In this document: positions 8,132-8,212 of the stretch, one piece after another
Layout: each line of letters begins with the position of its first letter
Position numbering within the stretch: position 1 is the stretch's first letter
DNA from: a virus
Strand: one strand, 5' to 3'
Length of the DNA stretch: 64,000 bases
Virus genome (UHGV): UHGV-1366640
Notes under the pieces: model-generated
Told to the model about the DNA's origin: nothing
The model's database searches: none
What the model saw: only the letters and a program-made list of their open reading frames with translations
Translations under genes and position numbers: made by a program

Positions 8132-8212
8132 TCTGAGAAGCCTTCAGAGCTTCTCAGATTAAAGAAGTGAGTCAGGGTAGTATAACTATACCCCTACTCA
8201 CTTTCTTTCAAT
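8132..8212. repeat. intergenic repeat element copy 1 (hairpin A tctgagaagc/gcttctcaga, ATTAAAGAA, then the conserved hairpin B aagtgagtcagggtagtataactatacccctactcactt followed by a T-rich tract)
   Basis: Direct inspection. Near-identical core at 32.4 kb and 45.9 kb. Terminator-like stem-loops. Confidence 0.7.

Follow-up and report, generated by a model that had tools for sequence, protein, structure and literature searches.

Three Copies of an Intergenic Hairpin Repeat in a T4-Related Phage Genome: A Probable Intrinsic Terminator within a Duplicated Terminator-Promoter Cassette

Genes and Features of the Window

The stretch of DNA analyzed here, referred to as the window, comprises 64,000 nucleotides of the virus genome UHGV-1366640, belongs to a metagenome contig of 98 kb (ENA ERZ27229772 k119_285387) and has a G+C content of 35%. 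It encodes a T4-type portal, the Gp23 capsid protein, a prohead protease and baseplate proteins. Further products are a holin, a GyrB-like topoisomerase, an amidase endolysin and a tape-measure protein of 1795 aa with an M23 peptidase domain. The main gene chain consists entirely of + strand ORFs. The phage is known from metagenome contigs only. Its nearest deposited phages are Listeria phage LIS04 and Bacillus phage SP-15, with a portal identity of approximately 35%, and a megablast search of window positions 7000-12000 against phage records returned no nucleotide match. The phage is related to T4 through its virion genes only, and its host is probably a low-GC, Gram-positive bacterium.

A block of 62-70 nt occurs three times in the 64-kb window, at 8146-8215 (copy 1), 32396-32465 (copy 2) and 45866-45935 (copy 3), and no fourth copy was found. 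All three copies are intergenic, lie on the + strand in the same orientation as the genes, and are located 10-90 nt 3' of a stop codon (8121, 32357 and 45778, respectively). Copy 1 lies 3' of the ORF 7486-8121 and 5' of the holin gene, copy 2 follows the tape-measure gene, and copy 3 lies 3' of the endolysin gene, a 214-aa ORF and a 79-aa ORF, and 5' of the topoisomerase gene. The features of the three sites, in the order of their positions, are as follows.

8132-8159, + strand: upstream hairpin A' of copy 1, UCUGAGAAGC / GCUUCUCAGA, 10 bp, 7-nt loop, -15.0 kcal/mol
8161-8208, + strand: main hairpin B of copy 1 with the U-tract UUUCUUUC; putative intrinsic terminator for the operon that ends at 8121
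8252-8644, + strand: holin gene (PHROG 13712 holin, E = 2e-20), flanked by copy 1 hairpin B and the promoter half
8662-8693, + strand: promoter-like motif upstream of the portal gene, TAAGAGTTTTC-N13-CGTTTATA, repeat families D1 and D3
32366-32385, + strand: hairpin A of copy 2, AGAGGUC-AUAA-GACCUCU, -10.0 kcal/mol, without a U-tract
32411-32458, + strand: main hairpin B of copy 2 with the U-tract UUUCUUUU; putative intrinsic terminator downstream of the tape-measure gene
32531-32562, + strand: promoter-like motif after copy 2, TAAGAGTTTCA-N13-CGTTTATA, 44 nt before the gene at 32606
45789-45817, + strand: separate canonical terminator, 12-bp stem followed by UACUUUAU, -17.0 kcal/mol; top match of the terminator-like scan
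45836-45952, + strand: full repeat unit of copy 3, with a degenerate hairpin A, a weakened hairpin B (45881-45928), the U-tract UUUUUAGUUU and the right flank CTTCTGAGAGC
46047-46069, + strand: promoter-like motif upstream of the GyrB-like topoisomerase gene, CCTGAGAATCTCAG-CGTTTATA

The 214-aa ORF upstream of copy 3 (44859-45503), to which an earlier note on this DNA had attached the word sigma, matches no Pfam family and no PDB entry, and its only PHROG match is a family of unknown function. Upstream of this ORF, on the + strand at 44760-44788, lies the sole convincing intergenic sigma-A-type promoter that was seen in the window (TTTACA-17-TATAAT); it has GTAGTATAAT in common with the repeat core.

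Copies of the Repeat and Comparison with Chance

In the repeat-family search, the identity to copy 1 amounts to 90% for copy 2 and 61% for copy 3. Of the 17-mer GGTAGTATAANTATACC, the window contains three occurrences, all on the + strand, where 0.25 would be expected, and none of 100 shuffles gave three. A covariance model, built from six sequences (the three window copies and three orthologues) and run on both strands with the filters off, returned the three sites at 71-91 bits, the rest of the window being noise. The three-copy repeat is real and lies far above the chance level, and its copies are located where the earlier note had placed them.

The same note had described arms of the type CTGAGAG/CTCTCAG whose arrangement changes from copy to copy. 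Reading of all copies confirms this description: the arms are local in copy 1, direct in copy 2 and inverted in copy 3. The heptamer CTGAGAG is found 19 times in the window against 14 expected and, without enrichment, was discarded as a motif in its own right.

Anatomy and Folding of the Hairpins

Read from 5' to 3', hairpin B consists of an A-tract (AAAGAA), a 6-bp helix (GUGAGU/ACUCAC), a small internal loop, a second helix of 5-6 bp, (A)GGGUA/UACCC(U), a 9-nt loop and a U-tract. In copies 1 and 2 it spans roughly 50 nt and forms 17 pairs in an imperfect stem with a 2x2 internal loop and one bulge; in copies 2 and 3, outer pairings can lengthen the helix to about 30 bp, in registers that differ. 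The stem energies calculated without the A- and U-tracts are -14.3, -16.1 and -7.0 kcal/mol for copies 1, 2 and 3, and the corresponding z values against shuffled sequences are -4.2, -5.2 and -1.9, the last of which is marginal. The upper stem of copy 3 is limited to 3 + 5 bp. The T-tail score reaches 4.46, 4.72 and 4.99 for copies 1, 2 and 3 in a window with a mean of 2.27 and a 99th percentile of 4.11, and copy 3 retains its U-tract though the sequence differs. The imperfect palindrome followed by a T-rich tract, as described in the earlier note, is therefore found in every copy, with strong folds in copies 1 and 2 and a weak one in copy 3.

The upstream hairpin A' of copy 1 has no U-tract, its T-tail score of 2.27 being equal to the window average, and it is partly retained in the related contig L099, with one mismatch and one wobble. 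Hairpin A of copy 2 begins 8 nt past the tape-measure stop codon, and the separate canonical terminator sits 20 nt upstream of the copy 3 unit.

Hairpin B resembles the intrinsic terminators of Firmicutes and their phages in its A-tract, its stem-loop and the U-rich tail that follows directly, as well as in its position just past a stop codon and its co-orientation with the genes; the values of -14 to -16 kcal/mol fall within the usual range. Departures from usual intrinsic terminators are the threefold use of one sequence, the conservation of the apical 17 nt beyond the needs of termination, and a long stem that contains a 2x2 internal loop and closes on a 9-nt loop. Because of these two loops hairpin B is not an ideal terminator, and a simple terminator scan called no copy of the repeat. 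The plan of A-tract, stem and U-tract is also present at 17043-17066, 44705-44742 and 45789-45817.

Conservation of the Structure

RNAalifold independently predicted the same 17-pair hairpin. In the six-sequence alignment 96% of the cells are paired, compared with 44-62% when the partners are slid. The earlier note had proposed folding the copies and looking for compensatory changes, and four such cases emerge: the pairs 14-46, 15-45, 16-44 and 21-39 are retained through changes on both sides. Since all four are found in copy 3, they represent one lineage's worth of compensatory evidence. Among the five sequences of copies 1 and 2 (the window copies, L098, L099 and L103), each of the four hairpin substitutions either affects an unpaired base of the loop or internal loop or creates a pair, and hairpin B of L098 and L099 differs from copy 1 at unpaired positions only. 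In the outer stem of L103 a C-G pair becomes U.G and an A-U pair becomes G.U, and in L104 an A opposite U is replaced by G. These substitutions are wobble-compatible on the + strand only, which is a weak argument for the strand because one mismatch of copy 3 would wobble on the other strand.

The apical part of the hairpin (GGUAGUAUAANUAUACC) is conserved in copy 3 at 16 of its 17 positions despite the diverged lower stem (P about 0.01, column shuffling). This conservation exceeds the requirement of a plain terminator, with modest significance. Furthermore, the core 9-mer GTAGTATAA occurs five times against 0.14 expected; two of the sites lie outside the repeat, both intergenic and on the + strand, and one of them coincides with the -10 region of the sigma-A-like promoter at 44760-44788. 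The enrichment hints at a sequence-specific role.

The RNase III sites of phage T7 are repeated, sequence-related hairpins located between gene clusters. For the Bacillus phage SP82, repeated RNase III processing hairpins are described (Panganiban and Whiteley 1983, as cited in PMC4838370), and SP82 transcripts are listed as non-native targets of B. subtilis RNase III (PMC4838370). By comparison with such sites, hairpin B might act as an RNA processing or stability element, cut by the host RNase III or blocking 3' exonucleases, and would in this way separate and stabilize operon transcripts. The helix of about two turns with internal loops, its extension by outer pairings in copies 2 and 3, and the wobble-compatible substitutions in the L103 outer stem on the + strand are consistent with this function, and the lytic phages T7 and SP82 likewise have multiple imperfect hairpins of related sequence, each of about two helical turns, between their gene clusters. 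Sites of this type comprise about 20 bp or more of imperfect double-stranded RNA; hairpin B has 17 pairs in copies 1 and 2, plus the outer extensions in copies 2 and 3. However, the T7 and SP82 sites lie inside long polycistronic transcripts and need no U-tract, whereas each hairpin here carries a U-tract of the terminator type, a feature of all copies that is explained by termination instead. Taking into account also that the register of the outer pairings differs between copies and that the upper part of copy 3 offers only 3 + 5 bp, RNA processing appears an unlikely function.

Terminator-Promoter Cassette and Promoter Motif

In a composite of approximately 180-250 bp, hairpin B is preceded by the small hairpin A and followed by a spacer and a promoter-like motif containing CGTTTATA. 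The alignment of copies 2 and 3 extends over about 180 nt and takes in both hairpins, the CTTCTGAGAGC flank and some of the spacer, with a score of 112 against 26 +/- 4 for shuffled sequences; the sequence common to copies 1 and 2 is the 70-nt core only. Between 8647-8710 and 32517-32577 the local alignment score is 57, compared with 22 +/- 4 for shuffled sequences, the promoter-like region upstream of the portal gene being homologous to the promoter half of copy 2. A promoter motif shortly after each copy, as reported in the earlier note, is thus present at copies 2 and 3, where CGTTTATA follows after 90 and 127 nt, but not at copy 1, where the next CGTTTATA is 470 nt away, past the holin gene. 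The holin gene and its ribosome-binding site are placed exactly between the two cassette halves. Its start was placed at 8252 in accordance with the gene of 130 aa called in L098 and L099, and the interval 8209-8251 ahead of it contains no CGTTTATA motif.

The octamer CGTTTATA occurs six times in the window against 0.83 expected, in every case on the + strand and in an intergenic region. It is preceded by a (T/A)GAGAGTTT-like sequence (repeat family D1), and the extended motif can be written as TGAGAGTTTTC-N13/14-(A)GCGTTTATA(Y)TTGTGTAAG. The presumed promoter of the cassette has the form TAAGAGTTT-N-CGTTTATA, and the sigma-70 scan calls none of the three copies. The motif after copy 2 is conserved in L103, L104 and L105, and the intergenic regions of the relatives at 66% identity contain AACGTTTATATTTGTG as the counterpart of CGTTTATA. 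It is very probable that CGTTTATA marks the phage family's own promoter motif, and it is possibly the late promoter of the family. The octamers lie at 8686, 32555, 46062, 50705, 54884 and 60109, and a variant is found at 57030.

A promoter or operator function has also to be considered for the repeat itself. In this case the invariant, near-palindromic core GGTAGTATAANTATACC, with the conserved ATTAAAGAA 9 nt upstream, would provide either a promoter with a -10-like TATAAT or an operator bound by a phage or host protein; it could, for example, drive the holin gene, which lacks a CGTTTATA promoter of its own. Copy 3 retains both ATTAAAGAA and the core, separated by a 9-nt interval that is altered in sequence but not in length. 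Enrichment of GTAGTATAA is seen at intergenic sites of the + strand, one of which is the TTTACA-17-TATAAT promoter. On the other hand, the changes in the copy 3 spacer are mirrored in the other arm with the pairing retained, as expected for a hairpin, and the core conservation is only modestly significant. The -35-like hexamer matches at three of six positions, the essential sixth base of the -10-like hexamer varies (TATAAC, TATAAT, TATAAG, and TATAGT in the case of two relatives), and the sigma-70 scan passes over every copy. That the core acts as a promoter or operator is consequently very unlikely, and a sigma-70 promoter in particular was rejected on account of the variable last base of the -10-like hexamer together with the 3/6 match of the -35-like one.

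Relatives and Wider Distribution

The element is present in relatives at 87-97% identity and absent from those at 66%. In L098 and L099 (portal identity 96-97%), copy 1 is found at the same place. In L103, whose homologue of the 271-aa protein shows 92% identity, copy 2 is accompanied by hairpin A, the flank and the promoter; hairpin A has a shorter stem there, AAGGUC-GUAA-GACCUU, with both arms changed. The comparison of orthologues covers copies 1 and 2, L106 ending before the copy 3 site. No copy was found in the approximately 53 kb read of L100, L102 and L107 (66% portal identity), nor by the covariance model in 75 kb of relatives at 46-66%. In L107 the tape-measure gene lies 23 bp from the homologue of the ORF 32606-33421, in a block that is otherwise collinear with the window from 25070 to 41883. 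Because the tape-measure gene abuts the next gene in this collinear relative, the 248-bp cassette of copy 2 is regarded as lineage-specific extra sequence. At the copy 1 locus, the 66% relatives show no equivalent of the ORF 7486-8121 or of the holin gene.

A scan of IMG/VR with the exact pattern of the core gave 96 single matches, all of which are attributed to chance because their flanks are unrelated. Longer patterns gave no match in IMG/VR, the JGI metagenomes or GTDB (185,579 species genomes), and a blastn search with the copy 2 cassette against the deposited phages (INPHARED) gave chance matches only. In Rfam, the whole window has no match at gathering thresholds; relaxed thresholds returned, around copy 2, sub-threshold generic hairpin models that represent noise.

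The earlier note had also entertained a miniature mobile element. A non-autonomous transposon, either a MITE or a palindromic element of the IS200/IS605 type, would be in keeping with the lineage-specific distribution, with the direct CTGAGAGC octamers that flank copy 2 (32393 and 32472) and with the occurrence of an IS605-family TnpB element in the same region of L099. However, the direct, inverted or local position of the arms in the different copies leaves no consistent terminal repeat or target duplication, the ends of the sole transposon encountered, the L099 insertion sequence (GGCTTTAGCCATGAG), are unrelated to the element, and close relatives show no polymorphism between empty and filled sites. 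The element was moreover not found in the 185,579 species genomes, IMG/VR or the JGI metagenomes. A miniature transposon is largely refuted by these observations and is retained only as an extremely improbable origin.

In L099 (96% identical), the IS605-family element is located at about 893-2320, directly after the CGTTTATA upstream of the portal gene, at a point equivalent to 8693/8694 of the window. It contains HTH_OrfB_IS605 and OrfB_IS605/Cas12f-like TnpB ORFs, and the hairpins at its ends, GACTTTAGTCATGAG / GGCTTTAGCCATGAG, show no relation to the repeat.

Two further observations concern the sequences of the relatives. The contigs L098, L104 and L105 start at or inside the element, which is consistent with assembly breaking at a multi-copy repeat in these genomes too. 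The loop dinucleotide (AC, AT or GT) and the internal loop (CCCC or CCCT) vary in a manner that is not tied to the locus: a GT loop occurs in both copy 1 of L099 and copy 2 of L103, and the CCCC typical of copy 1 is found in copy 2 of L104 and L105. Gene conversion between copies could account for these variants, with contigs that are not pairable by genome.

Comparison with PeSL Elements and Recombination

The promoter-early stem-loop (PeSL) is an element of about 100 bp that combines a stem-loop terminator with a sigma-70 early promoter and has been shown to terminate, promote and recombine (Arbiol et al. 2010, PMC2839356; Comeau et al. 2014, PMC4122927). Like the PeSLs of T4-type phages, the cassette is a repeated intergenic composite of stem-loop and promoter with conservation across roughly 100 bp; its phage has a T4-type virion module, and it can flank a lineage-specific small gene. 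The PeSL composite includes a Shine-Dalgarno sequence. Where a PeSL has a strong early promoter of the sigma-70 consensus, preceded by an AT-rich region, the cassette contains the phage-specific CGTTTATA motif, for which the sigma-70 test failed. PeSLs number dozens and are clustered in hyperplastic, non-essential ORFan regions, whereas the three copies here lie at operon boundaries in the structural and lysis region; copy 2 is inside the collinear tape-measure/baseplate block, and only copy 1 borders lineage-specific genes. Furthermore, recombination with indels and mini-circles is a trait of PeSLs, and the cassettes have no sequence similarity to them. By analogy, the cassette most resembles a PeSL as a repeated composite, without being a PeSL in the strict sense.

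This resemblance raises the question of recombination. The cassette sequence (about 100-250 bp) might serve as a homologous recombination site through which adjacent genes, such as the holin gene, are inserted, deleted or swapped, a role that would be compatible with termination. It is suggested by the duplication of the cassette and its extra presence at copy 2 relative to the collinear relative, by the missing counterparts of the ORF 7486-8121 and the holin gene at that locus in the 66% relatives, and by the position of the holin gene exactly between the terminator half and the promoter half. The recombination of PeSLs in T4-type phages (PMC2839356, PMC4122927) points in the same direction, as the phage has a T4-type portal, Gp23 and baseplate. 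Nevertheless, no rearrangement between copies was recovered in any relative, and copies 1 and 2 occupy the same sites in all readable 87-97% relatives. There are only three copies per 64 kb, copies 1 and 2 have only 70 nt in common, and exchange between the direct copies would delete essential structural genes. Such a role is therefore considered doubtful, though by no means far-fetched. As for the shuffling of gene modules by the repeat, put forward in the earlier note, the duplication of the whole cassette within the lineage and its extra presence at copy 2 lend backing to the idea in a weaker sense only.

Intrinsic Termination as the Preferred Explanation

The repeat is best explained as a duplicated intrinsic terminator inside a terminator-promoter cassette, an explanation with a probability of roughly 0.6 under which termination is predicted. 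This reading is favored because a U-tract within the top 1% of the window is present in all copies, the copies are positioned after stop codons and co-oriented with the genes, the stem is maintained, and the plan is common to other terminators of the phage. The terminator was one of the options in the earlier note, and among them it gains from the hairpin and U-tract of every copy, the maintenance of the stem in the orthologues and the partly both-sided changes in copy 3. A small RNA gene, also proposed there, finds no support, as there is no upstream promoter and no Rfam family.

According to the proposed mechanism, hairpin B would act on the + strand as a factor-independent terminator at the 3' end of three operons, namely those of the tail-fiber/adsorption genes, the tape-measure gene and the endolysin/small-protein cluster. 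RNA polymerase would transcribe the A-tract, the 17-bp imperfect stem-loop and the U-tract; the hairpin would form in the exit channel, and the weak rU:dA hybrid would then allow release of the transcript. The cassette would have been copied to its three sites within the phage lineage, and copy 3 may be a decaying copy, redundant with the canonical terminator just upstream. At copy 1, the holin would be expressed only via terminator read-through, because its gene lies between the terminator and the promoter.

A more elaborate proposal starts from the apical hairpin GGUAGUAUAANUAUACC, which might be the recognition site of a phage or host RNA-binding factor, such as an antiterminator, a nuclease or a stabilizer. 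The terminators would then be regulated, copy 1 would gate holin read-through and thereby contribute to the timing of lysis, and the cassettes could also be recombination points of the PeSL type. This combination is quite improbable.

If intrinsic termination is the correct reading, the element maps operon boundaries in an uncultured phage, suggests a holin whose expression depends on read-through, and would extend the concept of duplicated terminator-promoter cassettes beyond the T4-type coliphages, to a lineage and a class of promoter that are both very different. Current understanding would not be overturned, and the main use of the element is in annotation.

Intervening Sequences in Two Genes of the Window

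The Gp23 major capsid gene is split (12669-15421). Exon 1 ends near 13985, and the last approximately 38 residues resume at 15305-15421, with 81% identity to the C-terminus of Gp23 in the relatives. The 1.3-kb intervening sequence gives a sub-threshold Rfam match to a group I intron at 13973-14293 (35.6 bits, E = 1e-6) and carries an endonuclease-like ORF at 14367-15308; it probably represents a group I intron that carries a homing endonuclease. In addition, the GyrB-like topoisomerase subunit (46129-49281) contains an intein, recognized as Intein_splicing at residues 453-836 and bearing an HNH endonuclease motif, which is placed between the GyrB and Toprim domains.
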